Positions 2,632-61,130 of a stretch of 64,000 bases of DNA are shown here, in pieces. The translations under genes and the position numbers were made by a program. Origin of the DNA: Candidatus Woesearchaeota archaeon (GTDB taxonomy: Archaea > Nanobdellota > Nanobdellia > Woesearchaeales > ARS49); the NCBI GenBank assembly GCA_003599055.1, contig QZIM01000002.1, positions 70,097 to 134,096 on the forward strand, in the 5' to 3' direction. Within the stretch, counting starts at the first letter, position 1, and every line of letters begins with the position of its first letter. The notes below the pieces were generated by a model. It was not told where the DNA came from, made no database searches, and worked only from the letters and a program-made list of their open reading frames with translations.

Positions 2632-4092
2632 TTGGAAAACTTTATAAATTGCCGTTCCGGGCAGCGTCCTATGGAAGAGAGCAGGCTCGAGGCGCTTATC
2701 AGGAGCGCATTTGAGGAAGGTGCAAGGGTTCTTGAGGCACGGGATGTGCCGTATGAGCTGCCTGCAGTGCAGATTGCAAAAGGGCTCACGAACAAGAACA
2801 TAAAGGCGGATGTTGAATCGCTCGTTCGACTTGAGCAATTGATTGCGGGCGCAGTTCCGTCTTCTGCAACAGGTCCGTTTGCAGGGTTCGCGACCGCGGT
2901 TTTCGCAGGACAGGCAGCGTACAAATTTTGGGACGGCGCAGCGTGTGCGCCATATCACGTGTTTTTGCCGGCGGTTTCTGCCTGTTTTTACGCAGTGCCA
3001 AAGAGGTATCGTTTTGATGAGGTCTTCTTTGGGCTTCTCAGTGCGGGAATTATTCTCACTTCATTAGGCAATCACAACGAGCCTGCGCTGAAGTATGCGC
3101 TGCCGGCAACGTTGGGTCTTGCTGCGCTTTCGGCAATCACGCGTTACGTTAAGGGCGGTTATTCTTCTGAGAGCAGAGCTGCGGTAGGGCAGGCAATCGA
3201 ATCTGCAAAAATGCATTTGCGGGAGCTAAAGCGAGCATCCGCTGAGCAAAGGGATGGGTATGCGCAGACGCTGACCGTTCCTCCTGCAGGCGGGCAGGCC
3301 AAAGGAAGCGGGGAGTGTAATGGGTTGTATTTGGACAGGCGCCAGCGCAGGGCGCAATTCAAGCGGCAAAGTTCTGATGAGCAGCCCGTGGTGGACCATA
3401 TTCCAAAGCACGGGTTTAAAAAGCGAAATGAGGAATCTTCAGTTGATTCTGTTGTGAGTGACTGCAGTGATGTTGAGGAAATTGGAGAGGGTGTGCCTGA
3501 GTATGACCGCTACGTGATGCATTTGAATCGCAAGTATGGTGTTTCACTTGAAACCGCATCAGCGCTTGCGGAAGAATATGGCGTAAAACGGTTCAAGCGC
3601 AATATGCAAAGGCTCAAGCGTGAGTATGATACGCGTGAGATAAAAAGAAAACTGGCGCAAGACCCTTCGCTTCTTGGGAACGGCCCGAAGAAAGAACACG
3701 CGTCCCAAGAAGGAGAGGTGGCGGACCGTGAGCTTGAATTGTACTGGCGCCTGATGCGCGCGCAAAAAATGGACCCGGAAGTTGTGCACGCGGTTCTTGT
3801 GGTCGGCTTTGGCCTTGACGGTGCGGACCCGCGCATTGCTGAGCGCTACATCAACTATGATGATTTTATGAATCGCGTAAACCGGGTCATTCCTGCGAAA
3901 ATGTCTGATGCGCAGGCTTATTTCAGGTCTTTGGTTGCTGCGGGCGTTATTTCGGAAAAGAAGCGCGGTGAAGTGGTGCGGCTTGATGCGCGCTGGCACG
4001 AGCGTGCAGGAGGCATTGAGCGGGAGTATATCAGTTACGCGCTTGAGCGGCGGAATCGGAGCGGACGGCTGCCTCGTCCGAATTCAGTTTAG
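2632..4092 (+). CDS. hypothetical protein with hydrophobic N-terminal half and charged helical C-terminal half
   Basis: Long ORF with several hydrophobic segments in the N-terminal 180 aa and K/R/E-rich helical repeats in the C-terminal part. Alternative start at 2671 (MEESR). Confidence 0.5.
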   Translation: MENFINCRSGQRPMEESRLEALIRSAFEEGARVLEARDVPYELPAVQIAKGLTNKNIKADVESLVRLEQLIAGAVPSSATGPFAGFATAVFAGQAAYKFWDGAACAPYHVFLPAVSACFYAVPKRYRFDEVFFGLLSAGIILTSLGNHNEPALKYALPATLGLAALSAITRYVKGGYSSESRAAVGQAIESAKMHLRELKRASAEQRDGYAQTLTVPPAGGQAKGSGECNGLYLDRRQRRAQFKRQSSDEQPVVDHIPKHGFKKRNEESSVDSVVSDCSDVEEIGEGVPEYDRYVMHLNRKYGVSLETASALAEEYGVKRFKRNMQRLKREYDTREIKRKLAQDPSLLGNGPKKEHASQEGEVADRELELYWRLMRAQKMDPEVVHAVLVVGFGLDGADPRIAERYINYDDFMNRVNRVIPAKMSDAQAYFRSLVAAGVISEKKRGEVVRLDARWHERAGGIEREYISYALERRNRSGRLPRPNSV

Positions 4093-5023
4093 TTGCCTGC
4101 GGTAAAAATCCTCTGATTTCTTCAACGCTTTTCGCCCTGCTCAGTTTGTCCCGCATTTCGGCTCCGCCGCGTATTCCTTTGGTGAAGCTCATCGCGTGGG
4201 TTAAAATGAGGGGGTATTTCAGGTTATATTTCTCTGCAAGTTCCAGAAATTCGAAAAAGTGCGCGATGCGGTCTGTTTCAGGATATTTTCCGTTTTTCAG
4301 ATAATCGTTTATCTGCGTGAACAAGTACGGGTTTCCGATTGCTCCGCGTGCAACAAGTATTGCATCAACGCCGCTTTGGTCAAGCCGTTTTTTAAAATCT
4401 TCAGGGGTGAACACATCGCCGTTTCCGATGACGGGAATGTTGACTTTTTCTTTCACGGTGCGAATAATGTCCCAGTTCGCAATCCCTGAGTAGCCTTGTT
4501 TTTGTGTCCTGCCGTGAATTGCAATCGCGGCAGCTCCCGCATCTTCCGCAAGCCGCGCAATTTCAAGTGCATTAATGTTTTGCTCATCAATTCCGATTCG
4601 TATCTTCAAGGTTACCGGTTTTGAAACAGCGCTTGCAAGTTTGTTGATGAATGTGGCAATGCCTTCAGGTTTTTTGAGCATTTCCGAGCCGGCGCCGGTC
4701 TTGATGACTTTCCACGCAGGGCAGCCGCAGTTAACGTCAATGAGGTCAAAGTCGTTTTCAACCAGCCGTGCTGCAGAGACAACGTCATCAACTGAGCTTC
4801 CGAATAGCTGGACGGCAACAGGAGTTTCAATCGGGTCGGTTTTGAGCATATCGAGCGTGTGCAGGTTGCCGCGAACAATCGCGGTCCCGCTCAAAAATTC
4901 AGTGCAGGTAAGTCCTGCGCCGTATTTCTTGCACAAAGCGCGAAACGCAACGTCCGTGACGCCTGCCATTGGCGAAAGTATTGCGGGCGATGCGAGTTTT
5001 GGGAATGCTGCTTTGTGCTTCAT
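4031..5023 (-). CDS. dus: tRNA-dihydrouridine synthase
   Basis: TIM-barrel flavoenzyme signature: PMAGVTD near the N-terminus, catalytic Cys in DVNCGCP, a FMN-binding K..IRIG block, and GNGD. Length 330 aa is typical of Dus. Confidence 0.85.
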   Translation of the reverse strand: MKHKAAFPKLASPAILSPMAGVTDVAFRALCKKYGAGLTCTEFLSGTAIVRGNLHTLDMLKTDPIETPVAVQLFGSSVDDVVSAARLVENDFDLIDVNCGCPAWKVIKTGAGSEMLKKPEGIATFINKLASAVSKPVTLKIRIGIDEQNINALEIARLAEDAGAAAIAIHGRTQKQGYSGIANWDIIRTVKEKVNIPVIGNGDVFTPEDFKKRLDQSGVDAILVARGAIGNPYLFTQINDYLKNGKYPETDRIAHFFEFLELAEKYNLKYPLILTHAMSFTKGIRGGAEMRDKLSRAKSVEEIRGFLPQATKLNSDEAAVRSDSAAQARN

Positions 5024-9884: not shown

Positions 9885-10274
9885 TCAAATCCCGTCCTTG
9901 ATGATTTCAACACCGGGCAGTGAGTGGAAGTCAAAGTCACGGGTGATGAGCGTGCTCGATTCTTGTTGCGCGCTTGTATAGATGAGTGCGTCAATCGCTC
10001 CAAGGGAGTAGGTGTGGCCTATCTCTGCGGCATTGTTCGTGAGTGTGTGGTCGACATCAATGAATGTGCTGCGGGCTTTGATGAAATCGATAATCTGTCT
10101 GATTTTGTCATCGTTGATTTTATCACGCAGGAGTTTCCGTCGAATCTCGTAGAGCGAAAGACAGGAGGTCAGGATGATGTGCGGTCCTGTGACGAGCGCG
10201 AGCACGCGTTCGCTCTTCTCGAAGAAGTAGCCAAGCCAGGCAGAGGTGTCAAAGAAGTAACTAGAACCGGTCAT
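9885..10274 (-). CDS. vapC: PIN-domain ribonuclease (VapC toxin)
   Basis: N-terminal FFDTSAW with the first catalytic Asp, about 129 aa, conserved acidic residues later in the sequence. It overlaps the upstream small antitoxin gene. Confidence 0.75.
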   Translation of the reverse strand: MTGSSYFFDTSAWLGYFFEKSERVLALVTGPHIILTSCLSLYEIRRKLLRDKINDDKIRQIIDFIKARSTFIDVDHTLTNNAAEIGHTYSLGAIDALIYTSAQQESSTLITRDFDFHSLPGVEIIKDGI

Positions 10275-18996: not shown

Positions 18997-19325
18997 AGCT
19001 ATTGCCGTATAGGGAAGACGTGGATGTTTTTTTTGTCTCAAAGGGGTATCGGAAGGGCGAGCGTTTTCTGACGAATGAACTGTTCGGTGATATCGTCCTT
19101 GATGTGTCAGACCGAAAAGAGGTGCGCGGTGTGGAGATTCTTTGCGCATCGGCGTTTTTCAATCGCGTTGGAATTGAACTTGATTTCTTGCGTCGCGTGC
19201 GTTCTGCTGAATTTGTTTTTACTAATGCGGAAGGTAATTTATCTATTTTGATCCGAATGATTGATTCAGTGGGAGTTCAAAAGTCGTGCGCTTTTCCTTT
19301 GCTTGAATTGGCTGCTTTGGCTTAG
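18993..19325 (+). CDS. DUF2283 domain protein
   Basis: The N-terminus MKLLPYREDVDVFFVS matches the DUF2283 consensus start (MKI.YD.E.D.L.I). A GGAGG RBS lies 6 nt upstream. Confidence 0.55.
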   Translation: MKLLPYREDVDVFFVSKGYRKGERFLTNELFGDIVLDVSDRKEVRGVEILCASAFFNRVGIELDFLRRVRSAEFVFTNAEGNLSILIRMIDSVGVQKSCAFPLLELAALA

Positions 19326-19945: not shown

Positions 19946-20724
19946 GGGACGATGAGGTTGATTCGGGCAAAATGCAGGAGGGGCACGCTGATGGCTGCGT
20001 AGACGGCAAGCGCAATTGGCGGCCGGAGCATCCAGTTGAGGGGCAAGGTGAGCGCGACAAAGGTGATGAGTGCGCTCACAAGCCACGCGGGACCTGCTTT
20101 TTTTGCCTGTTTGAATGCAAAGAGAAACGTGTTTTTAAACGTTTGGTCGTGCGAAAGAAGTGCGTAGCTTGTTTGGGCAAGATAGGCAATGATGGCTGTT
20201 GCGATGATGAAGAGCGCGCTTGCCGTTCCTGAGCTGACAACAGGGAGGATGGTGGTCGTGCTGCCTTCAAGGATGCTGTACGCAATCAGGGTTGCGAGAA
20301 GGAAGGCGAACCAAAGAAGTGTGAGCCCGATGAATTTGAGCCAAGTGCGCTTCAGTGATACGGGGTGTACGAGCGAGTGGCTAAGGTACCATATCGGCCC
20401 GCGCACAAGGAGCGTGATGCCAAGGATACCAAGGAAGAAGTAGGCAATGTTTTCCAAAAGGCGCAAATACGCGGTCATAAACGCGTCGTTTTCCGAGAGG
20501 GTTTGGTCAAGCGTGTACAGTTCCGCATCGGTTTTCTGCTGGATTTCTTCCTGCATCACTTCGCCTGCGCGAAGCGCGGCGTCTGCCGACGGGATAAAGA
20601 AGTGGTAATGCAGGTACAGGACAGAAATAAAGAAGATTGCTTCAAGCAGCAAAATGACGGGAAGCATCTTCTTGTTTTTCCAAAAGACATTCCACGATTT
20701 TGGCAGGGTTTGGGAGAGGGTCAT
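19930..20724 (-). CDS. polytopic membrane protein, hypothetical
   Basis: Six predicted TM helices. Its first 100 nt are duplicated at 21443-21543. Confidence 0.5.
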   Translation of the reverse strand: MTLSQTLPKSWNVFWKNKKMLPVILLLEAIFFISVLYLHYHFFIPSADAALRAGEVMQEEIQQKTDAELYTLDQTLSENDAFMTAYLRLLENIAYFFLGILGITLLVRGPIWYLSHSLVHPVSLKRTWLKFIGLTLLWFAFLLATLIAYSILEGSTTTILPVVSSGTASALFIIATAIIAYLAQTSYALLSHDQTFKNTFLFAFKQAKKAGPAWLVSALITFVALTLPLNWMLRPPIALAVYAAISVPLLHFARINLIVPWSKK

Positions 20725-20726
20725 GG
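20626..20726. repeat. 101-bp direct repeat, copy 1 (spans start codon of 19930..20724)
   Basis: 99 of 101 nt are identical to 21443-21543, which contains the ATG of the membrane gene overlapping the TGA of the PIN gene. Confidence 0.7.
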
Positions 20727-21119
20727 GGTAATGCGCGTTATGTTCTTGATTTGGTCAAAGTCATCATCGTAGCTTGCAATGGTGGTGATGCCATTTACTC
20801 GCATGGTTGCGAGGTGGATTGCGTCGCGGGGATTGAGATTATCATGAGTGTAAGCGTGGAGTGCTTCTTCGATGATTTGTTGTGTCGTATCAAGGAAGGC
20901 AAGGTTGCGGATATCGAGGAGGTTTCTCGCCACGTTTGCTGCGAAGGGCTTGCCTTTTTCCCGTTGCAGGGCCCACAGTGCTTCGTCGATAGTGAGAACG
21001 GACGTGGCTGCTTCTTGGTTTCCCTTGATGATGTGCATAAGGAGGCGTCTGCTCTTTTTTCCGGGTTCAGCATCATTTGCTGCTGAATTGATGAGGATAT
21101 TTGAGTCGATGTAAATCAT
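20721..21119 (-). CDS. vapC: PIN-domain ribonuclease (VapC toxin)
   Basis: MIYIDSNILIN with the first Asp, about 133 aa, acidic residues later. Start placed at the internal ATG so that it overlaps the antitoxin stop (ATGA). Confidence 0.7.
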   Translation of the reverse strand: MIYIDSNILINSAANDAEPGKKSRRLLMHIIKGNQEAATSVLTIDEALWALQREKGKPFAANVARNLLDIRNLAFLDTTQQIIEEALHAYTHDNLNPRDAIHLATMRVNGITTIASYDDDFDQIKNITRITP

Positions 21120-21358
21120 TGTTTTGCCAGGTGTTCTTCGTATTCTTTGGAAGTGTATGCTTTTTTTTGTCCGATTTCTTTTGCGCATCGTTCAAGAAAC
21201 GCAATCGGGTCCTCTGTGCGTGGCCTTGTGATGAGGATACCGTCAGGTGTTTCTTTAATGACGACGTCCTTTCCAGGGTAGAACTTGTACTCGTCTCGCA
21301 GTAGTTTTGGAATGAGCACTTGCCCTTTCGGCCCAAGTTTTACCGTGAGTTGTACCAT
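21116..21358 (-). CDS. vapB: AbrB/SpoVT-type antitoxin (VapB/MazE-like)
   Basis: LTVKLGPKGQVLIPKLLRDEY is a swapped-hairpin AbrB motif in an 80-aa protein, translationally coupled to the PIN gene. Confidence 0.65.
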   Translation of the reverse strand: MVQLTVKLGPKGQVLIPKLLRDEYKFYPGKDVVIKETPDGILITRPRTEDPIAFLERCAKEIGQKKAYTSKEYEEHLAKQ

Positions 21359-31503: not shown

Positions 31504-32409
31504 ATGAAAAGAGGTCAGGTTACTGTTTTTATCATATTGGGTATTTTGCTTCTTGCAGGGGTTGGTTTCTATCTTTACTTGTCCGGTCGTGAGGCAGAGG
31601 TTCCGCTTGAGGCGGGCGTGATGAAGCCGACAACAGACCCGCGGGTTTTTCAGGAGTTTGTTGAGGCGTGTCTTGCGGAGACCGTGACGCAGGGAGTTTA
31701 TACGATTGCGGCGCAAGGCGGCTATTCTGCGCCAAAGGGTGATTGGTCGCTTGGCGATTCCGGAGACGGTCTTCCGATTCACTATTATGTGCCTGAGGGG
31801 GTCGTGCCGTTTGTTTTGAACAGGAACGATTCGGCAGTGCGTCCTCTTGCTGATGTTGAGCTGGTTCTTGCGCGGTATGTTGCGGCGAATTTTGATGAGT
31901 GTTTGGACTTTTCTGATTTGGAAGCAAGAGGGTACGAGGTAAAAAAGCCAACTGTTGACTTTGAGGCGATAAACTGGGATTTTGCAAGGGCAAAAGTTGA
32001 GTTTGCGCAGGAGACCGTGCGAATAGATGCAGAGCTTCGGCCTGAGGGCGATATTTTTGTTCGCGCAAGATACCCGATTGCGGTAAGCGGCCTTGATGCG
32101 TCGTTTACGATTCCGGAAACTGCAGTGGTTGTGCCGCTTCGGCTGGCGTTGCTCCATAAGATTGCCGTGCGTCTTGCTGACCAGATAGGGAAGGCGGCAA
32201 GGCAGGGAAGTGCCTATAAGGTTGATGAGCATTGTCAGGAATATGCTCCGGCGGATATGCAGGTAAATGTGTATGCGTTCAAGAGCGGCGCCGTGCGTGA
32301 GGCGCTCATCACCGTAGTTGACGCAAGCCCGCGTCGTCTTGGCTTAGCCCCGCTTCGGTTCAATATTGCCGTGCGAAATGCGGATGCAGAAGGAGTGTGT
32401 CTTGGATGA
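31504..32409 (+). CDS. type-IV-pilin-like protein (class III signal peptide), 301 aa
   Basis: MKRGQVTVFIILGILLLAGVGFYLYLSGRE is a classic KRGQ prepilin-like start. Its conserved block (EFVEACLAETVTQGVYTIAAQGGY) is shared with the 694- and 713-aa paralogs. The 13-nt overlap with the downstream giant gene indicates co-transcription. Confidence 0.7.
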   Translation: MKRGQVTVFIILGILLLAGVGFYLYLSGREAEVPLEAGVMKPTTDPRVFQEFVEACLAETVTQGVYTIAAQGGYSAPKGDWSLGDSGDGLPIHYYVPEGVVPFVLNRNDSAVRPLADVELVLARYVAANFDECLDFSDLEARGYEVKKPTVDFEAINWDFARAKVEFAQETVRIDAELRPEGDIFVRARYPIAVSGLDASFTIPETAVVVPLRLALLHKIAVRLADQIGKAARQGSAYKVDEHCQEYAPADMQVNVYAFKSGAVREALITVVDASPRRLGLAPLRFNIAVRNADAEGVCLG

Positions 32410-35400
32410 AATCATTTGCGTTGTTTGCAATTATGTTGTTCTTGCTCTATCCGGTGGATGTTTCTGCGCAGCTTGACGGTGCGGACGGGGGTGAGGGTTT
32501 TGACTCATTTATTCCGGTGTTGGGAAATGTAACGGTGTCCATTGATGTCGCTTCTGTTGTCATTCCCGCATCTTTTAGTGGCGAGGATGTTTCTGCGCAA
32601 GTGAGTGTGCGGTTGGATGGGCCAAACCGGCAGGTAGGGGTTTTGGGAATCAAGATGACGCTCAAGAATTACACGGGCGGCGAGGCAGTTCTGTCAGGTG
32701 ACCAGTCGTTGACTGTTTCGCTGCAGCCGGATGCAGTGTCGAATGCGGTTGTTCTTGAAAATCTGAACTGGCGCATCTTTAGCTATTATGGGCAGTTGCA
32801 GCAGGGGCAAACCGGCTTTGGTCGCGAATTATTTTTTGATGTTCTGAAGGGCGGGAAGAATTATGGCCGTTTGGCGCTGAGTTTTGAATTGATTGACCCG
32901 CTTGCGGATGAGAGCGAGGTGACGATTTCAAAGGACGGCAGTAAGGTTGGTTCGGGTACGGTGTTTTCTGATGATGAGCCGCTTATCGACCAGTTCACGC
33001 AGGTGACGAATTTGTTTGCGGGTTTTGTGACGACGAGAAACGGCAATCCGGTGCAGACAGGGGAGATTCGGGCAGCAGTGGGAGGAGGGGTAATTGGCGG
33101 AGGGGCATTTGTTTCGGAAATCTCTGCGGTTGGCGAGCGCGGGGGGTATGGGTTCCACGGGCGCCCGATGGTTGTTTCAGGAGTGGTCGGCACTCCGGTT
33201 GATTTTTATTTTGGGGATTACAAATTGGAGACGGCGTATTTGACAAGTGAGGGGCAGGTGCGCAGGCTTGATTTCCAGCTTCCTATTGTGACGAGCGCAG
33301 TGAACTTCCCTGATTGGGATTTGGATGGGGTTCCTGATACGGAAGATGTCTGTCCGAGTTCTGATTCAAATTTGGTTGATGCGAACGGTTGCACCTGCGC
33401 GCAGCTGGTGGCGCTCAAGGGCGGAAGTTGCGTATATGTTCCCGGAAAAGGGCCGAAGTGGAGTCCTCCTGCGCCTCCGCCTCCGCAGTGTAAGACGCCA
33501 AATAAGTGCATAAGCGGCCAAGGCCCGAAGTTTTGCACGGAGAACTCAACAATTATCAATAATTGCGAAGAGTGCGGCTGTACGCCCGGGTTCACGTGTA
33601 ATCCCTGCCCTGAAGGGATGGAGTGCATTACGGATGGGAATTGTTACAAGGTAATTGAGCGGGTTGGGCTTAAGTGTTTGACAAATAAGTACGTGAACGG
33701 GCCCGGGCTGAATTGCTCGACATTGGGCAACACGTGGGTTGACGTTTTTGCAGAAGACCCGCTGAAGCGTGACTTGAGCAATTTCATTACGGTTGAGGTG
33801 GAGACGGGAACATTTGGGGGGAAGCGCAGGGATATTCGCCAGCAGATGGTGAACAATTTGAAGATGCAGAAGGTGTGCATTGATTCGGTTGACATTGGTT
33901 GTGTTCCGGAAGGGACAAAGTGTGCGGGTGAAGTGCTTTTGCAGCGGGACTTTGGTGAAGTGACCTCGGTACTTTCACAGTTCGTTCGGACAAAGACAAC
34001 GCGTGACCTTGCGGGAGCGCTTGCTTCGCCGCTGAATATCGGATTGTCGACAGGAGGCGCGCTTGCGGGTGCGCTGATTGGCGCGTCAATGGCAGGGCCG
34101 CTTCTTGCCGCAGGGCCGCTTGCCATTATCGGCTTGCTTGTCGGCGCAGTGATTGGCTTGCTTGGCGCGTTCTTTGCAAAGGTGCGCATTAAGTTTGGCC
34201 TGAACGTCCAGGCAATCAAGGATAGTTCTACAAAGGTGGCGTACGTTTGTGACCCTCTGTTGGTTCTTGGCAATATGACGTGTTCGCCGTTGATGCAAAA
34301 CACGGATTCTGATGGCGGAATTGATATTTTGTTTATGGCTGATGGGTATTCTGATGATGAGTTCCAAGCACTTGTTGAACAGCTTATCGACCGCAATAGT
34401 ACTGCGTCGGGTACGCGCAGGGAAGGTTTGTTCTCAAGAGAGCCGTTCCGCGGAAACAAGGGGCTGTTTAACGTGTGGATTATGACGGCAAACCAGTCGA
34501 TTGGCCACGTTGCGGATGAGTTCAGGCCATCGCTGGGAAGGCGTCCGAACATTACGGATGTTCGTCAGATTGCGGCGTACTGTCCGCAGCAGGACTTCAC
34601 GTTTGTTGTGACAAAGGGTGAGCGGTATTTCAGTGATTGCAGCTTTGAGGGAACGCAGCCGTGTTATTTGAGTATGGAAGATGAGGGTGTGCCGGGGCGG
34701 CAGGTGCTCCGTATGATGGGGAAGGCCTTGGGCGGTCTTGCAGATGAGTGGACTTTTGAGCGGGATGCGGTTCCAAGCAAGTATCGCGTGATGGGTCTTG
34801 AGTTTGTCGCAAGCGACAATCGTCCGAACTGTCAGACTGATGTGAATGAGGCGCGTGCGAAGTGGGGTGATAAGATTGCGGAGGCAGGGGTCGGCATTTT
34901 TGATGGGTGCGGCGGTGAATGTACGAATTGTGCGCGGTTCCAGCGCCCAACGTATAACAGCGCGATGCGGAATTGGACGCAACGGTGCACATCTGAAGGC
35001 AACTGTCGTGACGGCCCGCCGTACGACCCGTTCTATATTGTGAATGAGGAGGCGCTCATTGATGCAATGCAAAAATGGGGTGATGCAGAGGCAAGTGAGG
35101 AGGCGCCAAGCGCGCCGGTGTCGATGGAAGATGAGCAGGGTGGTAAAGAGGAGGTTTCAGAGGGGGAAGGGACGACCGAGTCTGATGTGAGTCAGGTTGA
35201 CATTAGCGTGTTTTCATTCAATCCGGGTTCAATTACGATTGCACGCGGAGAAAAAGTCCGATGGACAAACAAGGACGCAACCGAACACACGGTGACGGGA
35301 ACCGGGTTTGATTCGCGCCTCGCGCCGCAGCAGAGTTTTACAAGGACGTTTGACACTGCGGGGACGTTCACATACCAGTGCAGTATTCACCCGGAAATGC

Positions 35401-35423
35401 AGGGTGTTGTGATTGTCGAGTAG
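32397..35423 (+). CDS. giant mosaic surface protein (1008 aa): TSP3-like repeat, Cys-rich module, internal Gly-zipper TM, degenerate M64-peptidase-like domain, C-terminal cupredoxin
   Basis: Signal peptide MSWMKSFALFAIMLFLLYPVDVSAQ. DWDLDGVPDTEDVCP is a thrombospondin-3-type Ca-binding repeat. A Gly-zipper TM helix lies mid-protein (GALAGALIGASMAGPLLAAGPLAIIGLLVGAVIGLL). IDILFMADGYSDDEF...GGLADEW resembles the IgA-peptidase M64 fold but has no HExxH. The C-terminal cupredoxin carries H...CSIHPEMQG. Confidence 0.75.
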   Translation: MSWMKSFALFAIMLFLLYPVDVSAQLDGADGGEGFDSFIPVLGNVTVSIDVASVVIPASFSGEDVSAQVSVRLDGPNRQVGVLGIKMTLKNYTGGEAVLSGDQSLTVSLQPDAVSNAVVLENLNWRIFSYYGQLQQGQTGFGRELFFDVLKGGKNYGRLALSFELIDPLADESEVTISKDGSKVGSGTVFSDDEPLIDQFTQVTNLFAGFVTTRNGNPVQTGEIRAAVGGGVIGGGAFVSEISAVGERGGYGFHGRPMVVSGVVGTPVDFYFGDYKLETAYLTSEGQVRRLDFQLPIVTSAVNFPDWDLDGVPDTEDVCPSSDSNLVDANGCTCAQLVALKGGSCVYVPGKGPKWSPPAPPPPQCKTPNKCISGQGPKFCTENSTIINNCEECGCTPGFTCNPCPEGMECITDGNCYKVIERVGLKCLTNKYVNGPGLNCSTLGNTWVDVFAEDPLKRDLSNFITVEVETGTFGGKRRDIRQQMVNNLKMQKVCIDSVDIGCVPEGTKCAGEVLLQRDFGEVTSVLSQFVRTKTTRDLAGALASPLNIGLSTGGALAGALIGASMAGPLLAAGPLAIIGLLVGAVIGLLGAFFAKVRIKFGLNVQAIKDSSTKVAYVCDPLLVLGNMTCSPLMQNTDSDGGIDILFMADGYSDDEFQALVEQLIDRNSTASGTRREGLFSREPFRGNKGLFNVWIMTANQSIGHVADEFRPSLGRRPNITDVRQIAAYCPQQDFTFVVTKGERYFSDCSFEGTQPCYLSMEDEGVPGRQVLRMMGKALGGLADEWTFERDAVPSKYRVMGLEFVASDNRPNCQTDVNEARAKWGDKIAEAGVGIFDGCGGECTNCARFQRPTYNSAMRNWTQRCTSEGNCRDGPPYDPFYIVNEEALIDAMQKWGDAEASEEAPSAPVSMEDEQGGKEEVSEGEGTTESDVSQVDISVFSFNPGSITIARGEKVRWTNKDATEHTVTGTGFDSRLAPQQSFTRTFDTAGTFTYQCSIHPEMQGVVIVE

Positions 35424-47251: not shown

Positions 47252-48397
47252 ATGAAACTCCGCCAAATTCCCGATGATTTCATTGTTGAGGAGGTTCCGG
47301 ATAAGGAGTGGAAGCCGGAAGGAAAATTTGCCGTCTATAAGGTGGCAAAGGTGGGGCTCACGACGTTTGCTGCGGAAAAGATTCTGGCAAGGAATTTAGG
47401 CGTTAAGTTTAACAAAATCGGGTTTGCCGGGCTCAAGGACGCGCACGCAAGAACAGTGCAATACTTCTCGGCGGAGACAGGCGAGCCGCAAAAGGGCGTC
47501 TTTCGGGAAAAGAACGTCACTTCAGAGCTCGTCGGATTCGCGGATGAGCAAATTCGGACCGGTGACCTTGTCGGAAACAAGTTCATTATTACGGTGCGGG
47601 AGCTTGAAAAAGAGCAAATTGAGACGGCAAAGAGGAATGTTGAGTCGGTGAATCAGGGCATCCCGAATTATTTTGACAGCCAGCGTTTCGGAAGCCTGAA
47701 AGGAACAACGGGGTTTATTGCAAAGGATGTCTTGCGGGGTGATGTTGAGTCTGCGCTCAAAAAAGTGCTGACGGCAACGACCAAGCATCAAAAGGGGGTT
47801 GTGCGCAAGGCGCGAAAGATGATTGCGCGGGAGTGGGGCAGGTGGGCTGAATTGCTTGTTGAAGTGGAGAAAATGGGGCTTGAGCGTGCATCAGAAGCGG
47901 CAATGCTTCGTCATTTGGTGCAAAACCCTATCGACTTTAAGGGTGCATTTCAAAAAACGTTTGCGGGTGTGCGCCAGTTGTTCTTCTCGGCGTACCAGTC
48001 GTATATTTGGAATGAATGCGTGAAGCGTCTTGTCAGGAAGACAAGTAAAGAGGTCTTCTCAGTTCCGTATGAGGCGGGAAAACTGGTGTTTCCAAGAGGG
48101 TGGAGCTTGGCGGACCGAACGTTTCCGCTGGTTGCGGGAGATATGAATGTTCAGGGAGATGATAGGGCAATCGTGCAGGAGGTTTTAAAGCAGGAAGGGA
48201 TGCAGCTGATTGACTTTTTCAGCGATGCGCATATGTTTATTGCGCGCGAGCGGCACGTGAAGCTGTATCCGTCAGGACTTGCGCTTGAGGATGCGGATGA
48301 TGAGCGCTGTCCCGGGAAAAAGAAGCTGACGCTGACATTTGCGCTTCCGAAAGGAAGCTATGCGACGATTGTGACAAAGGCGCTCTTTGAGCAATAG
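47252..48397 (+). CDS. truD: tRNA pseudouridine(13) synthase TruD
   Basis: Catalytic motif FAGLKDAHARTVQY (GxKD with the catalytic Asp), a second conserved NYFDSQRFG block, and a length of about 380 aa typical of archaeal TruD. Confidence 0.8.
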   Translation: MKLRQIPDDFIVEEVPDKEWKPEGKFAVYKVAKVGLTTFAAEKILARNLGVKFNKIGFAGLKDAHARTVQYFSAETGEPQKGVFREKNVTSELVGFADEQIRTGDLVGNKFIITVRELEKEQIETAKRNVESVNQGIPNYFDSQRFGSLKGTTGFIAKDVLRGDVESALKKVLTATTKHQKGVVRKARKMIAREWGRWAELLVEVEKMGLERASEAAMLRHLVQNPIDFKGAFQKTFAGVRQLFFSAYQSYIWNECVKRLVRKTSKEVFSVPYEAGKLVFPRGWSLADRTFPLVAGDMNVQGDDRAIVQEVLKQEGMQLIDFFSDAHMFIARERHVKLYPSGLALEDADDERCPGKKKLTLTFALPKGSYATIVTKALFEQ

Positions 48398-49284: not shown

Positions 49285-50229
49285 TTAGCCAAACAAGCTA
49301 AGGCGGATTCCAAGATAAGCAACGTAGAGCGAAATGAGTCCTATGCTTGCGGTTTTTGACAGCGTTTTTTGGTATTTGCAGAGAAGAAGAACTGTGAGGG
49401 TGATAACGGTCAGTGCGGGCAGGTCGTAAATGAGCAGGTTGCGCGGGACGGAAAATCCTGCAATCGCAGTGCCAAGACCGAGTGCGAGGAGAAGGTCGCA
49501 AAGGTTGCTTCCGATAAGGTTGGAGAGGGATAAGTCGTGCTGTCTTTTGCGCAGGGCGACAAGGGATACGGCAACTTCCGGAAGGCCTGTTCCAAGGCCG
49601 ACAACAAAGATGCCGACGAATGTTTGGGTGACGCCCCAGGCAGCAGCAAGCATAATGCCGTTTTGTACAACAAGTTCAGAGGTGAATCCGATGAGCATAA
49701 GGCCGCCGATGAGGTTCACGAGGTCTTTTCCGAGGTGTAACTGGGGTTTGCGTCCGGTGAACTTTTCGTGCAGGTTTTCTTCCCTGCTGAGTTGGGCAAG
49801 GTAGAGCGTGTAGAGGATGATGAGAGTGTATCCTTCAAATACGGTGAGCCGTCCGTCAAAGAACATAACGGCGAGCACAAGAAGTGCCCCGATGAGCGTG
49901 ACTGCTTCCCGCGCAAAATTTTTGCGCTTGAGCTGAAGGGTTCCGAAAAGCCCGACGAGTCCAAGGAGGATGGTGAAGAGGTTTGCGGCAGAGCCGATGA
50001 CGTTTCCGACAACGATGCCGCTCGTTTCAAGTCCTGCTGCGCGGTCAATTCCTCCTGTGACGGCAAGGGCGATTTCCGGAATTGATGTTCCGATGCTGAG
50101 AATGGTAAGGCCGATGAATGTTTGGCTGATGCGAAAGTGTGCGGCAATGTTTTTTGCGCCGCGAATGCCCAAGTCTGCTCCGAGCCAAAGGCCGACCAAT
50201 CCGAACAGGAGGAAAAACAGTTCTTTCAT
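49285..50229 (-). CDS. Na+/Ca2+ exchanger (CaCA family, YrbG-like)
   Basis: Two internal alpha-repeats (GNVIGSAANLF and GIFVVGLGTGLPE) in a membrane protein of about 10 TM helices. Confidence 0.8.
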   Translation of the reverse strand: MKELFFLLFGLVGLWLGADLGIRGAKNIAAHFRISQTFIGLTILSIGTSIPEIALAVTGGIDRAAGLETSGIVVGNVIGSAANLFTILLGLVGLFGTLQLKRKNFAREAVTLIGALLVLAVMFFDGRLTVFEGYTLIILYTLYLAQLSREENLHEKFTGRKPQLHLGKDLVNLIGGLMLIGFTSELVVQNGIMLAAAWGVTQTFVGIFVVGLGTGLPEVAVSLVALRKRQHDLSLSNLIGSNLCDLLLALGLGTAIAGFSVPRNLLIYDLPALTVITLTVLLLCKYQKTLSKTASIGLISLYVAYLGIRLSLFG

Positions 50230-50296
50230 TCTGCCTCTTTTTGTTTGGGAAATGCAACAATCTTTATAAAGGGTTGTTTTAGAAAGAAGGTATCCC

Positions 50297-50367
50297 GGGG
50301 CTATGATCTAGGGGTATGATGCGAGGTTTGGGACCTCGTCGCCGCGGTTCAATTCCGCGTAGCCCCA
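50297..50367 (+). tRNA. tRNA-Pro (anticodon UGG), no encoded CCA
   Basis: Hand-folded cloverleaf: acceptor GGGGCTA/TAGCCCC, U8, anticodon stem CGAGG/CCTCG, loop TTTGGGA (U33, anticodon TGG, G37), 4-nt variable loop, T-stem CGCGG/CCGCG with loop TTCAATT, discriminator A. The D-stem has one mismatch. Confidence 0.7.
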
Positions 50368-50770
50368 TAGAGTTTCAAACGCGTAGCGTATTTACATTTC
50401 TATACTGGGCGCGGATTGAACTTCCGAAACGAGCGCCAAGCGAAGTGTCGAGAGTTCAATTCCGCGTAGCCCCATAGAGTTGGAAACACGAAGTGTTGTT
50501 ATGTTCTATAGTCAGCAAGGAATTGAACTCCAGACGACGCAGTCGTTTTGAGTTAAATTCCGCGTAGCCCCATAGAGTTGGTAGCGCGAAGCGCAATTGT
50601 GTTGATAGCATAGCAAGGAATTGAACTCCGGCCGTGAAACGGATTGAGTTCAATTCCGCGTAGCCCCATAAAACTGCTTCTGCGAAGAATAGTGTTCGAG
50701 TTGTTTGTCACGCGTAATTGAACTTCGCCAAGCCCGAAGGGTTGGAGTGAGTTCATCTTCGAAGTCGAAG
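50347..50770 (+). repeat. tandem array of tRNA-Pro 3'-end copies (28 nt) within about 100-bp hairpin-containing units
   Basis: GTTCAATTCCGCGTAGCCCCATAGAGTT occurs at 50347, 50454, 50552 and 50648. The intervening about 75-nt segments are themselves homologous (gcgaag...atag...ggaattgaactcc-[small hairpin]-gagttcaattcc), forming 12-bp inverted repeats. A degenerate fifth unit lies near 50690-50770. Confidence 0.7.
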
Positions 50771-50851
50771 ACGAGAAGAACTCGGCAGCGCGCCTGTTAT
50801 TCTGTTTTTGCGCGGTGCCGTGTATTCCGGTAGCAATATAACTTGCCTGTT

Positions 50852-51271
50852 TCAAAACGGCCGTGCAGTCCGTCCCGTTGGCGTGGGGTCAACAAATGAG
50901 GAGCGGGGGAGCCTGCGGGTGACTGGGCGTTGTGAATTTCGTATCGCGCCCAAGTATTCATCGTACACTTTTTTGACGCTTGGGTCTTCAAGAAGGGCTG
51001 AAAGTGCATCGAGCTCTTCAGTGTATCCTCCTTTGTGTGCGTGGTTCAGCGCGGAACTGAGCGGCCAGTTGCTGGTGCTTTCTGCTTGTGATTGGAGGAA
51101 GAATATCAGTTGGGAGAGGTATGCGTGCCCGTTTTGGGCGCTTCCGATTGCTGCGCGGTAGTGCTTTGCGGCAATGTCTTGTTCGTGGTTTGCGTGTGCG
51201 CGGACTGCTTCAGTGAGGCTCATTTTGAATGTGTGGCGGCGATACGTTCCGCTGTCAGTGGTATAGGTCAT
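50852..51271 (-). CDS. hypothetical helical protein
   Basis: ORF of 139 aa with no motif. It lies immediately downstream of the tRNA-associated repeat array. Confidence 0.35.
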   Translation of the reverse strand: MTYTTDSGTYRRHTFKMSLTEAVRAHANHEQDIAAKHYRAAIGSAQNGHAYLSQLIFFLQSQAESTSNWPLSSALNHAHKGGYTEELDALSALLEDPSVKKVYDEYLGAIRNSQRPVTRRLPRSSFVDPTPTGRTARPF

Positions 51272-51341
51272 ATGCTTCGCTCGCGGGCGGTCCTATAAAA
51301 GAATTTCTATAATTTATAAGTTTCCATTTATAAATGGCTGC

Positions 51342-59657: not shown

Positions 59658-61130
59658 ATGCCGACTGAAGAGGAATTAATTGCAGAGCGCAAAAGAAAGC
59701 GTGATGATTTTTTGAAGGCGGGAATCAACCCGTATCCGTATTCGTACGACCCGTCGCATAAGAGTGTTGAATTGCAGAAAAAGTATGAAAAGCTCGCGCT
59801 CGAGGAGCGAACGAATGATTCGGTGAAGGTTGCGGGCAGAATCGTCGGTTTGCGGCGAATGGGAAAAGCAACGTTCCTGCATTTGCTTGATGGCGCAGGA
59901 AAGGTTCAGTGTTATTTCAAGTTTGATGACTTGCCGGAAACATACGACCTACTCAAGCTTGCGGACGTGGGTGACTGGCTGGGGGTTGAAGGGACGATTT
60001 TCAAGACGAAAACCGGTGAAGTCACCGTGTGGGCAAAGAATTTCACGATGCTATGCAAGAGCCTGCGTCCGCTTCCGGAAAAATGGCACGGCTTGCAGGA
60101 TATCGAGCAGCGGTATCGCAAGAGGTATGTTGACCTGATTGTGAACCCCAACGTTCGTGAGACGTTTGTGCAGCGCTCAAAGATTATCAATGCAGTGCGG
60201 GGCGAACTGGACAGGCGCGGCTATCTTGAGGTTGACACGCCGATTATTCACTCGATTTACGGCGGGGCGAATGCAAAGCCGTTTAAGACGCATCTTAATT
60301 CGCTCAAGATGGACTGTTATTTGCGCGTTGCAACCGAGCTGCACCTCAAGCGCCTTTTGGTCGGTGGGTTTGAGAAAGTGTATGAGGTTGGCCGCCTGTT
60401 TCGAAATGAGGATATTGACCGGACGCATAATCCTGAATTCACGAGCGTTGAGGCGTATTCGGCGTACGGCGACTATATGACGATGAAAGAGCTCATTGAG
60501 GACATTTATGTTGCCGCGGCAAAGGCAATTCACGGCTCAACCAAATTTGAATATCAGGGCCACGAGATTGACGTGAAAAAGCCGTGGGCGAGTTATACGA
60601 TGGTTGAGGTATTGCAAAAGTTTGCGGGAATCGATGCGGAAAAAATTAGTGTTGATGATATGAAAAAGCTCTGTGCGCAGCACAGGATTCAGGTTGAAGA
60701 AAATTTGACCAGAGGTCAACTGATTCAGGCACTCTTTGAGGACTTGGTTGAGCCAAAGCTCATTCAGCCGACGTTCATCACGCATCACCCGCTTGAGTCA
60801 ACGCCGCTGTGCAAGCAGTGCCGTGAGCCGCACTTAAATGAGCATTTCATTGAGCGCTTTGAGCCGTATATTGCGGGGATGGAAATTGCGAACGCGTATT
60901 CTGAGCTCAACGACCCGGTAATTCAGCGAAAGCTGCTTGAGGAGCAGGCGGCGCAATTGCGCGCAGGAGCAGAAGAGGCGCACCCGATGGATGAGGACTT
61001 TGTTGAGGCAATCGAGTTTGGAATGCCTCCTGCGGGCGGGATTGGTTTTGGGATTGACCGGATGATTATGCTTTTGACAAACAACGCAAGTATTCGGGAC
61101 GTCTTGCTGTTCCCGTTCATGAAGCAATGA
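59658..61130 (+). CDS. lysS: lysyl-tRNA synthetase, class II
   Basis: N-terminal OB anticodon-binding domain, then class II motifs 1-3, including FRNEDIDRTHNPEFTSVEAY and GIGFGIDRMIMLLT. Confidence 0.9.
   Translation: MPTEEELIAERKRKRDDFLKAGINPYPYSYDPSHKSVELQKKYEKLALEERTNDSVKVAGRIVGLRRMGKATFLHLLDGAGKVQCYFKFDDLPETYDLLKLADVGDWLGVEGTIFKTKTGEVTVWAKNFTMLCKSLRPLPEKWHGLQDIEQRYRKRYVDLIVNPNVRETFVQRSKIINAVRGELDRRGYLEVDTPIIHSIYGGANAKPFKTHLNSLKMDCYLRVATELHLKRLLVGGFEKVYEVGRLFRNEDIDRTHNPEFTSVEAYSAYGDYMTMKELIEDIYVAAAKAIHGSTKFEYQGHEIDVKKPWASYTMVEVLQKFAGIDAEKISVDDMKKLCAQHRIQVEENLTRGQLIQALFEDLVEPKLIQPTFITHHPLESTPLCKQCREPHLNEHFIERFEPYIAGMEIANAYSELNDPVIQRKLLEEQAAQLRAGAEEAHPMDEDFVEAIEFGMPPAGGIGFGIDRMIMLLTNNASIRDVLLFPFMKQ

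Follow-up and report, generated by a model that had tools for sequence, protein, structure and literature searches.

Why should the 3′ end of a transfer RNA (tRNA) gene recur several times immediately downstream of the intact gene? This question is raised by tRNA-Pro(UGG) in a 64-kb stretch of the genome of a Candidatus Woesearchaeota (DPANN) archaeon (hereafter, the window, i.e., the whole stretch of DNA that was analyzed). The original prediction, made from the sequence of this DNA, took the repeats either for fossil attachment (att) sites, left behind by integration and excision at the tRNA gene, or for a tRNA-derived miniature repeat element. We find that the feature is real: it is a conserved hairpin module that sits on tRNA-Pro, imitates the 3′ end of this tRNA and is amplified in this genome. 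Given its conservation in a distant relative, the module is probably a small functional element rather than the debris of integrated viruses. Our tentative preference, to which we assign a probability of about 45%, is that the array is a structured 3′-trailer module of tRNA-Pro(UGG) that would be co-transcribed with the tRNA and was tandemly amplified by unequal recombination.

The tRNA gene and the four units of the array, each of which starts at the base after the preceding discriminator, are the following (lengths in nucleotides, nt; z, fold on the + strand compared with shuffled sequences):

50297-50367, + strand: tRNA-Pro(UGG), found by ARAGORN and by Rfam RF00005 (58.3 bits, E=1.2e-11).
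50368-50474, + strand: unit U1, 107 nt; RNA fold -36.0 kcal/mol, z -3.45.
50475-50572, + strand: unit U2, 98 nt; fold z -3.06; the unit closest to the module of a distant relative, L014 (79% identity).
50573-50668, + strand: unit U3, 96 nt; fold z -4.43; identical in strain L018.
50669 to ~50775, + strand: degenerate terminal unit U4, from manual alignment; fold not significant (z -0.54).

The tRNA-Pro gene is intact, 71 nt long and without an encoded CCA, with the T-arm CGCGG-TTCAATT-CCGCG, the acceptor stem GGGGCTA/TAGCCCC and the discriminator A. It is the only tRNA gene called by ARAGORN in the whole window, and an Rfam scan of 49800-51300 gave no second tRNA-like match even at E<=10. The 21-mer GTTCAATTCCGCGTAGCCCCA, which covers the T-loop, the 3′ strand of the T-stem, the 3′ strand of the acceptor stem and the discriminator, starts at 50347 within the tRNA gene and then at 50454, 50552 (with one mismatch, C to A in the T-loop copy) and 50648. 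These 4 matches compare with 0.01 expected from shuffles; together with the 7 trailing bases TAGAGTT, the 21-mer makes up a shared block of 28 nt. The starts of the copies are 107, 98 and 96 nt apart, and Tandem Repeats Finder reports a period of 98 nt. The predicted arrangement, a tRNA-Pro(UGG) gene with copies of its 3′ end at intervals of 96-107, is thus borne out, and so is the view that the copies are fragments rather than tRNA genes, given that both ARAGORN and Rfam RF00005 detect a single complete tRNA, at 50297-50367. Equally, the array is not a CRISPR: its spacers, 68-79 nt long, non-coding and collinear, are mutually homologous (53-76% identity), and no cas genes were found in the window. 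To these earlier observations, we add the fourth, degenerate unit, U4, with its decayed copy of the tRNA end. The sequence of the array is identical across the whole region in an independent contig from the Joint Genome Institute (L001) and is therefore not an assembly artefact; a Logan contig (L002) stops precisely at the first repeated block, which is typical of de Bruijn assemblies when they meet a repeat.

How are the units built? Read from 5′ to 3′, each opens with a small hairpin, continues with a linker and a long hairpin, and closes with the acceptor strand repeated; the long hairpin pairs a 3′ arm that duplicates the T-loop and the 3′ strand of the T-stem with a 5′ arm that is antisense to this duplicate. 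A 12-bp inverted repeat, GGAATTGAACTC/GAGTTCAATTCC, had been predicted for every unit, flanking a short hairpin; the flanked hairpin, with a three-base loop, is indeed present in each, and the repeat is exact in U2 and U3 but imperfect in U1. GGAATTGAACTC also has a match at 19170, inside a coding sequence, which was dismissed as chance. In U1, the small hairpin ACGC-GTA-GCGT (50379-50389) precedes the long hairpin (50407-50472), whose 5′ arm, GGGCGCGGATTGAAC, repeats the tRNA 3′ end in inverted orientation, and the pseudo 3′ end lies at 50454-50474. The small hairpin of U2 is AACAC-GAA-GTGTT (50485-50497), its arms (50519-50530 and 50550-50561) enclose the top AGACGAC-GCA-GTCGTTT, and its pseudo 3′ end occupies 50552-50572; the corresponding elements of U3 are GCGC-GAA-GCGC (50584-50594), perfect 12-bp arms (50617-50628 and 50646-50657) around the top CCGT-GAA-ACGG, and a pseudo 3′ end at 50648-50668. 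U4 retains a small hairpin (~50677-50690), a 5′ arm (ACGCGTAATTGAAC, 50710-50723), a top (CCAAGCCC-GAA-GGGTTGG, 50728-50745) and, at 50749-50761, the degraded tRNA-end copy GAGTTCATCTTCG. In the 5′ arms of both U1 and U4, the inverted tRNA 3′ end extends well past 12 nt. The tops of the long hairpins vary in sequence, but each of them is a palindrome capped by a G-N-A triloop. Overall, the units are 64-76% identical to one another (U2 is 69% identical to U1 and 76% to U3); between U2 and U3, the arms and the tRNA-end blocks agree at 49 of 50 positions and the remainder at 26 of 49 (Fisher p=5e-8, for blocks picked after seeing the data).

Is this module confined to one genome? A profile of U1-U3, run with nhmmer over all fetched loci, found one more module, in a 3.8-kb contig of another species in the European Nucleotide Archive (L014), which was reached through a 57%-identical homolog of the 139-aa protein encoded next to the array; the profile gave no further copy in the window and about 90 kb of other loci. 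L014 has its own tRNA-Pro(UGG), 80% identical to that of the window, followed by exactly one module and then by TTCTTATTTTTT (T6). This module is 79% identical to U2, and its hairpin top, AGACGAC(T)GCAGTCGTTT, is nearly unchanged from that of U2. When L014 was compared with the window by blastn, the alignments were confined to three segments: one of coding sequence at 68% identity, the module at 80% across 125 nt and the tRNA at 80% across 82 nt. The conservation of the module thus matches that of the tRNA and exceeds that of the nearby coding DNA. A tRNA with one module and an oligo-T terminator, as in L014, is probably the ancestral state.

Moreover, in each of the two species, the pseudo 3′ end repeats the cognate acceptor strand, TAGCCCCA in the window and TATCCCCA in L014. 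The pseudo 3′ end of L014, GGGTATCCCCA, corresponds to the acceptor strand of its own tRNA, not to that of the window, GCGTAGCCCCA, and the copy therefore follows a compensated change in the acceptor stem. Where the L014 copy differs from its tRNA (ATCTGG versus TCCGGG), the 5′ arm of the hairpin (CCAGGT) has changed to match the copy, with a G·U pair. Two of the T-loop copies are defective: that of U2 has lost the conserved C56, and that of L014 has a loop of 8 nt. The hairpin top common to U2 and L014 (GACGAC-GCA-GUCGUUUU) resembles a bacterial-type intrinsic terminator, a stem-loop followed by four U, and this terminator-like run (50546-50549 in the window, ~3627-3630 in L014) sits within the module, immediately ahead of the pseudo tRNA end.

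Another possibility is that a split or intron-containing tRNA uses the copies as spare or alternative 3′ exons, which the archaeal splicing endonuclease would join to the tRNA body. DPANN archaea are known for split and multi-intron tRNA genes, and the copies do keep the register of the T-loop, the 3′ T-stem, the acceptor strand and A73, being complementary to the 5′ acceptor strand in both species. However, the tRNA gene at the head of the array is already complete and canonical (58 bits), and splicing would only give the same molecule; there is no conserved bulge-helix-bulge, the internal loops being different (1x1 in U2, 3x3 in U3); no copy of the tRNA 5′ half, orphan or otherwise, occurs elsewhere in the window; and two of the copies have the defective T-loops described above. 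We rejected this explanation, on the grounds of the complete tRNA, the missing bulge-helix-bulge and the defective copies, as highly improbable.

At what level, RNA or DNA, is the structure maintained? On the + strand, which is the strand of the tRNA, the L014 module folds with a z of -4.22, next to the values given above for U1-U3, whereas the antisense strand folds slightly less well, with z values of -2.58 for U1, -1.77 for U2, -4.43 for U3 and -2.88 for the L014 module. The fold of the L014 module amounts to -35.3 kcal/mol on the tRNA strand compared with -28.4 kcal/mol in antisense, and several G·U pairs on the tRNA strand are A·C on the other strand. We further aligned U1, U2, U3, the L014 module and a remnant of the array from a close relative, L005 (alignment A4), with three hand-drawn helices: in this alignment, whose structure was derived from these very sequences, of which three rows are paralogs and in which the L005 row is not truly homologous at the small hairpin, 92.5% of the helix cells are paired, compared with 19-42% after a shift of the partners by 1-3 columns, both sides have changed in five pairs, and the covariation score is 0.279, compared with 0.166 in shuffles, with 0 of 500 shuffles reaching it.

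Three lineages in all could be compared for the trailer, namely, the window, L014 and L005. The latter, from a 135-kb Logan contig, is syntenic with the window, with about 96% nucleotide identity in the flanks, and its tRNA and the first 80 nt of its U1 are identical to those of the window. What follows is a mosaic: a 49-nt deletion, the middle of U2, a 98-nt deletion, a U3-like hairpin with three pair-breaking substitutions, and a diverged pseudo 3′ end that abuts T5/A9. The mosaic folds no better than shuffles (z -0.17). The 98-nt deletion is exactly one period, with its junction within the conserved 17-mer GCAAGGAATTGAACTCC, and such a deletion, with breakpoints inside units, points to unequal recombination. 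The third haplotype, L018, differs from the window in U4 by six substitutions, of which five are clustered. These five, found in L018 at 3000-3100 (window positions 50706-50729, plus 50767 for the sixth), fall within about 24 nt in the small-hairpin part of U4, in strains that are otherwise identical, and two of the U4 changes touch stem pairs, one restoring a pair and the other turning C:G into U·G; the cluster looks like a conversion or template-switch event rather than a set of independent point mutations.

Thus, the comparison with related strains that the original prediction had called for reveals variation, with one period lost in L005 and substitutions in U4 of L018. The array evolves fast, through whole-unit events as well as clustered substitutions; the number of copies is not stable, and the module itself is dispensable. 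Modules can be gained and lost easily because each is bounded by direct repeats of 21-30 nt, and unequal recombination or slippage would explain the presence of 3-4 copies here, one in L014 and a decayed mosaic in L005.

Such instability is also what one would expect of a neutral minisatellite, in which the 3′ end was duplicated by chance and then multiplied by slippage or unequal crossing-over, with palindromes kept by template switching and without any function. Copy number and sequence differ at ~96% identity and even among near-identical strains, the L005 remnant has decayed by pair-breaking substitutions, U4 is degenerate, and the lineage range is narrow, the more distant homologs of the neighboring genes having neither a tRNA-Pro nor a module nearby. 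A functionless repeat would not, however, be expected to retain 79-80% identity beside adjacent coding DNA at 68% and a neighboring protein at 57%. Nor would it be expected to keep its acceptor-strand copy in step with the cognate tRNA, to show such strongly mosaic conservation within the unit, or to preserve its helices with strand-specific G·U pairs. On balance, we regard the neutral explanation as quite unlikely.

Four further features of the locus surround the array:

50263-50270, no strand assigned: palindromic TATA-like box TTTATAAA, read from the sequence and the same in L001, L002 and L005.
49285-50229, - strand: Na+/Ca2+ antiporter gene, divergent from tRNA-Pro.
50805-50809, + strand: TTTTT, the first run of at least five T past tRNA-Pro, from a regular-expression scan.
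50852-51271, - strand: gene for the 139-aa protein, to which no function was assigned, converging on the array.

The box TTTATAAA is ~27-34 nt upstream of the start of tRNA-Pro on the + strand and ~34-41 nt upstream of the ATG of the antiporter gene (50229, - strand) and is likely a shared archaeal promoter element for this divergent pair. The TTTTT at 50805-50809 is likely the archaeal oligo-T terminator of a transcript that would comprise the tRNA and its trailer; a scan for bacterial-type intrinsic terminators found none, and the archaeal oligo-T runs were then located by hand. The sole other T run between the tRNA and TTTTT is T4 at 50546-50549, within the U2 hairpin. In L005 (T5) and L014 (T6), too, the first oligo-T comes directly after the last pseudo 3′ end, and all 3 lineages lack a T5 from the tRNA through to the end of the last unit. 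We favor the trailer interpretation because different species share the conserved module, which shows compensatory changes and lies in these 3 lineages between the tRNA and the first oligo-T.

Under the trailer interpretation, RNA polymerase would start at the TATA box and read the tRNA and all modules up to the first oligo-T, and 3′ processing after A73 would free tRNA-Pro. The module hairpin would lock the duplicated T-loop away, keeping it from competing with the real T-arm, and the tRNA-like 3′ end would set the end of the module RNA, yielding discrete hairpin RNAs of ~100 nt, in the manner of RttR from tyrT of Escherichia coli. Unequal crossing-over or replication slippage would add or delete whole modules. 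In an alternative form of this interpretation, the array may belong to a novel family of small RNAs from tRNA trailers in DPANN archaea, with 3′ ends that mimic a tRNA.

Several considerations weigh against a trailer RNA. Whereas the anatomy of the module, its conservation and covariation, the better fold of the tRNA strand, the terminator positions and the change in copy number are observed, transcription of the trailer with the tRNA and its processing are predicted only from where the promoter and the terminator lie. A role for the freed module RNA is likewise a prediction, and we can name no specific cellular function for it. The covariation statistics are weak, coming from 3 lineages only, with the units within a genome being paralogs, and apparently compensatory changes in palindromes can arise, without selection, from template-switch correction of quasi-palindromes. 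All the loops are G-N-A triloops, a motif best known for stable DNA mini-hairpins, and a role at the DNA level fits this equally well. Furthermore, the nearest match of U2 is the L014 module, not U1 or U3, whereas a simple recent amplification predicts otherwise. Finally, the module can be dispensed with, given that L005 keeps only a remnant that is deleted, pair-breaking and non-folding.

Are the copies, then, scars of integration? The identity block, which extends from the T-loop to past the 3′ end, is of the extent that is usual for att sites, and this part of the original prediction stands. The idea of passive fossils fares worse because the whole unit is conserved in L014 at 79-80%, compared with 68% for the flanking coding DNA, because its helices are kept by compensatory changes, because the copy tracks the acceptor sequence of each species, because the one-period deletion in L005 breaks inside units, and because neither an integrase or other mobile gene (in the window and L014) nor a viral or plasmid match was found. 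In line with the earlier observation that the window lacks an integrase, Pfam scans of the ~48 open reading frames (ORFs) of the window revealed no integrase, nor any transposase or Cas protein, Cas1 included, and those of the L014 genes revealed no integrase or mobile-element gene. No attP match was found in the IMG/VR, phage and plasmid collections, a result of limited weight given that these collections hold few DPANN elements. The original prediction had suggested a search for copies outside the locus: scans of genome contigs and of metagenome contigs for the exact 21-mer, a query that proved too specific, gave only a chance coding match, seen at 2058-2078 of L003, a metagenome-assembled genome of an uncultured member of Nitrospirales, and at 2102-2122 of L004, a matching metagenome contig, both in coding sequence and without a tRNA context. 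A tRNA-derived miniature repeat element, the other option offered by the original prediction, comes closer to the actual feature than att-site fossils do.

A more active involvement of recombination can be imagined, in which the units are miniature cassettes inserted by site-specific recombination into the T-loop of tRNA-Pro, with the long hairpin serving as the folded attachment site. The stem would mimic the double-stranded T-loop region, in the way of integron attC or CTX-phage attP; each unit would bring a replacement tRNA 3′ end and push the earlier end downstream; and the recombinase would be supplied in trans by another part of the genome or by a virus. In accord with this possibility, the identity between the tRNA and the copy starts exactly at G53|T54 (G|TTCAATT) in both the window and L014, and the distal copy followed by oligo-T in L014 and L005 looks like the displaced original end of the tRNA gene. 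One and the same array holds very different hairpin tops, yet that of U2 is nearly the same as the top from the distant lineage; the arms are conserved, and the center is variable but still palindromic; and the shared G-N-A triloops are in line with such a folded site. Known precedents point in the same direction: partial tRNA copies between tandem elements are an established signature of integration, described for tycheposons (bioRxiv 10.1101/2020.12.28.424599), and clusters of attC sites without an integrase (CALINs) have been reported in Nanoarchaeota (PMC9668308). The difficulties are that no integrase, transposase or Cas1 was found among the window ORFs or the L014 genes, that no copy of the unit turned up elsewhere in the window or in the ~90 kb of other loci, and that IMG/VR, phages and plasmids yielded no match. 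In addition, 96-107 bp is far below the size of any known integrative element and too short to circularize as duplex DNA, the R′′-like and R′-like boxes are just 37 nt apart and without extrahelical bases, which, by inspection, departs from the usual description of attC, and the one-period deletion junction in L005 lies inside units, not at G|TT. We consider insertion of such cassettes somewhat unlikely but still a serious rival of the trailer interpretation. The specific version in which this is an undescribed hairpin recombination cassette, with a folded or single-stranded att that mimics the T-loop and inserts at G|TTCAATT, so that the tRNA gene would act like attI and gather mini-cassettes in a polar order, seems to us unlikely.

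What known systems does the array resemble? Its closest precedent appears to be, by analogy, the tyrT/rttR repeats of E. coli, an arrangement that is itself known but little understood and of which the archaeal form is new. In the E. coli K-12 record, tyrV is directly followed by three units of 178 nt, and the final 19 nt of tRNA-Tyr reappear at this spacing. The annotated small RNA rttR covers one of the units, its 3′ terminus falling precisely on the pseudo 3′ end; that rttR is encoded by one repeat unit is attributed to Bosl and Kersten 1991 (as cited in PMC3318445). The tyrT/tyrV repeats (RttR/rtT, tpr) share with the archaeal array the head-to-tail homologous units that abut a tRNA and each end in a copy of the tRNA 3′ end, as well as the inverted partial copy of the tRNA end in each unit. 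In the E. coli K-12 sequence (L015, NC_000913.3 1286000-1288500), these inverted copies of 10-14 nt, TCTCATCCTTCCCC, are found at 816-829, 994-1007 and 1172-1185; on the opposite strand, TCTCATCCTTCCCC is an antisense segment in the E. coli transcript, a parallel to the antisense arm of the archaeal hairpin. The E. coli units lie within the tRNA transcription unit, whereas for the archaeal array co-transcription is a prediction. The resemblance is architectural only: E. coli is a bacterium, there is no sequence homology, and the archaeal array matches no Rfam family other than tRNA (E<=10), hence no RttR homology. The E. coli units are 178 nt long and ~95% identical, whereas those of the archaeon are ~100 nt long and 64-76% identical; the archaeal pseudo T-loop forms one arm of a long hairpin; and no small ORF like tpr is conserved in the archaeal array.

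The likeness to recombination systems is more partial. With the att repeats of tyrosine recombinases (tycheposons and archaeal elements), the array shares a block running from the T-loop to past the 3′ end (G53-A73 plus 7 nt) and the presence of several copies past one intact tRNA, the most distal being the most decayed, and tRNA-Pro(UGG) is a known integration target in other organisms (bioRxiv 10.1101/2020.12.28.424599). The archaeal DNA between the repeats, by contrast, is just 68-79 nt long, non-coding, structured, homologous from unit to unit and conserved across species. Integron attC sites and CALINs likewise form arrays of imperfect hairpins with conserved outer boxes and a variable palindromic center, and the archaeal 3′ box GTTCAAT (GTTAAAT in U2) resembles GTTRRRY, with the identity starting after G. 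However, by inspection, the archaeal boxes are 37 nt apart, compared with at least ~55 nt in typical attC, whose hairpins measure about 55-140 nt, and the array, which sits at a tRNA, has neither extrahelical bases (again by inspection) nor cassette ORFs or IntI. Casposons, which occur in tandem at tRNA-Leu, also reuse a tRNA 3′ end as a target that is duplicated at each insertion (PMC4779613), but the archaeal array lacks Cas1, PolB and terminal inverted repeats, and its repeats are 21-30 nt, compared with 14-15 nt, with inserts of ~70 nt. A search of the literature for an archaeal precedent returned only general work on att sites, casposons and integrons.

If the array is indeed an RNA element, it would be the archaeal counterpart of the long-known, poorly understood tyrT/rttR of E. 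coli, and the same design would have been reached in two domains of life, suggesting a general use for the mimicry of tRNA ends, in processing or in the production of small RNAs. If it acts at the level of DNA, it would be a new and very small site-specific cassette that docks at the tRNA T-loop in DPANN, archaea of which, to our knowledge, hardly any mobile elements have been described. Either way, partial tRNA repeats beside tRNA genes are not always scars of integration, and alignment A4 provides a compact motif with which DPANN genomes can be scanned.

Other roles for the array were considered and discarded. A coding role was rejected given that the 100-aa ORF on the - strand (50553-50855) has no homolog among 5.8 billion clusters; this ORF shows 4 non-synonymous and 2 synonymous differences in L018 and is deleted in L005. 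A C/D-box or H/ACA guide RNA was rejected in the absence of box motifs and of an Rfam match, and a replication origin was rejected as the GC skew does not switch at the array. Indeed, the GC skew is positive in every 2-kb bin of 1-64000 (+0.02 to +0.29, mostly about +0.1 to +0.25), without a switch, and the AT skew is negative in all 2-kb bins but one, both regardless of gene orientation.

Among the neighbors, the antiporter homologs P0003, P0004, P0006, P0007, P0008 and P0012 have no tRNA-Pro nearby, and only L005 is syntenic; in L005 (4001-4819), the antiporter is called at 272 aa, compared with 314 aa in the window, and may be truncated or frameshifted. Further away, 21538-45735 is occupied by very large ORFs (2419, 694, 1008, 980, 1073 and 713 aa), which probably encode surface proteins of the kind typical of DPANN archaea; Pfam matches are almost absent here, except for a cupredoxin-like domain at the end of the 1008-aa ORF (32397-35423). 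Two PIN-domain proteins, at 9885-10274 and 20721-21188, are possible toxins of the VapC type. The window with its single tRNA gene also contains tRNA-related genes at 4031-5023, 47252-48397 and 59658-61130, encoding a Dus dihydrouridine synthase, a TruD/Pus7-type pseudouridine synthase and a class II aminoacyl-tRNA synthetase of the Asp/Asn/Lys type; the gene for the TruD/Pus7-type enzyme lies 1.9 kb from tRNA-Pro.

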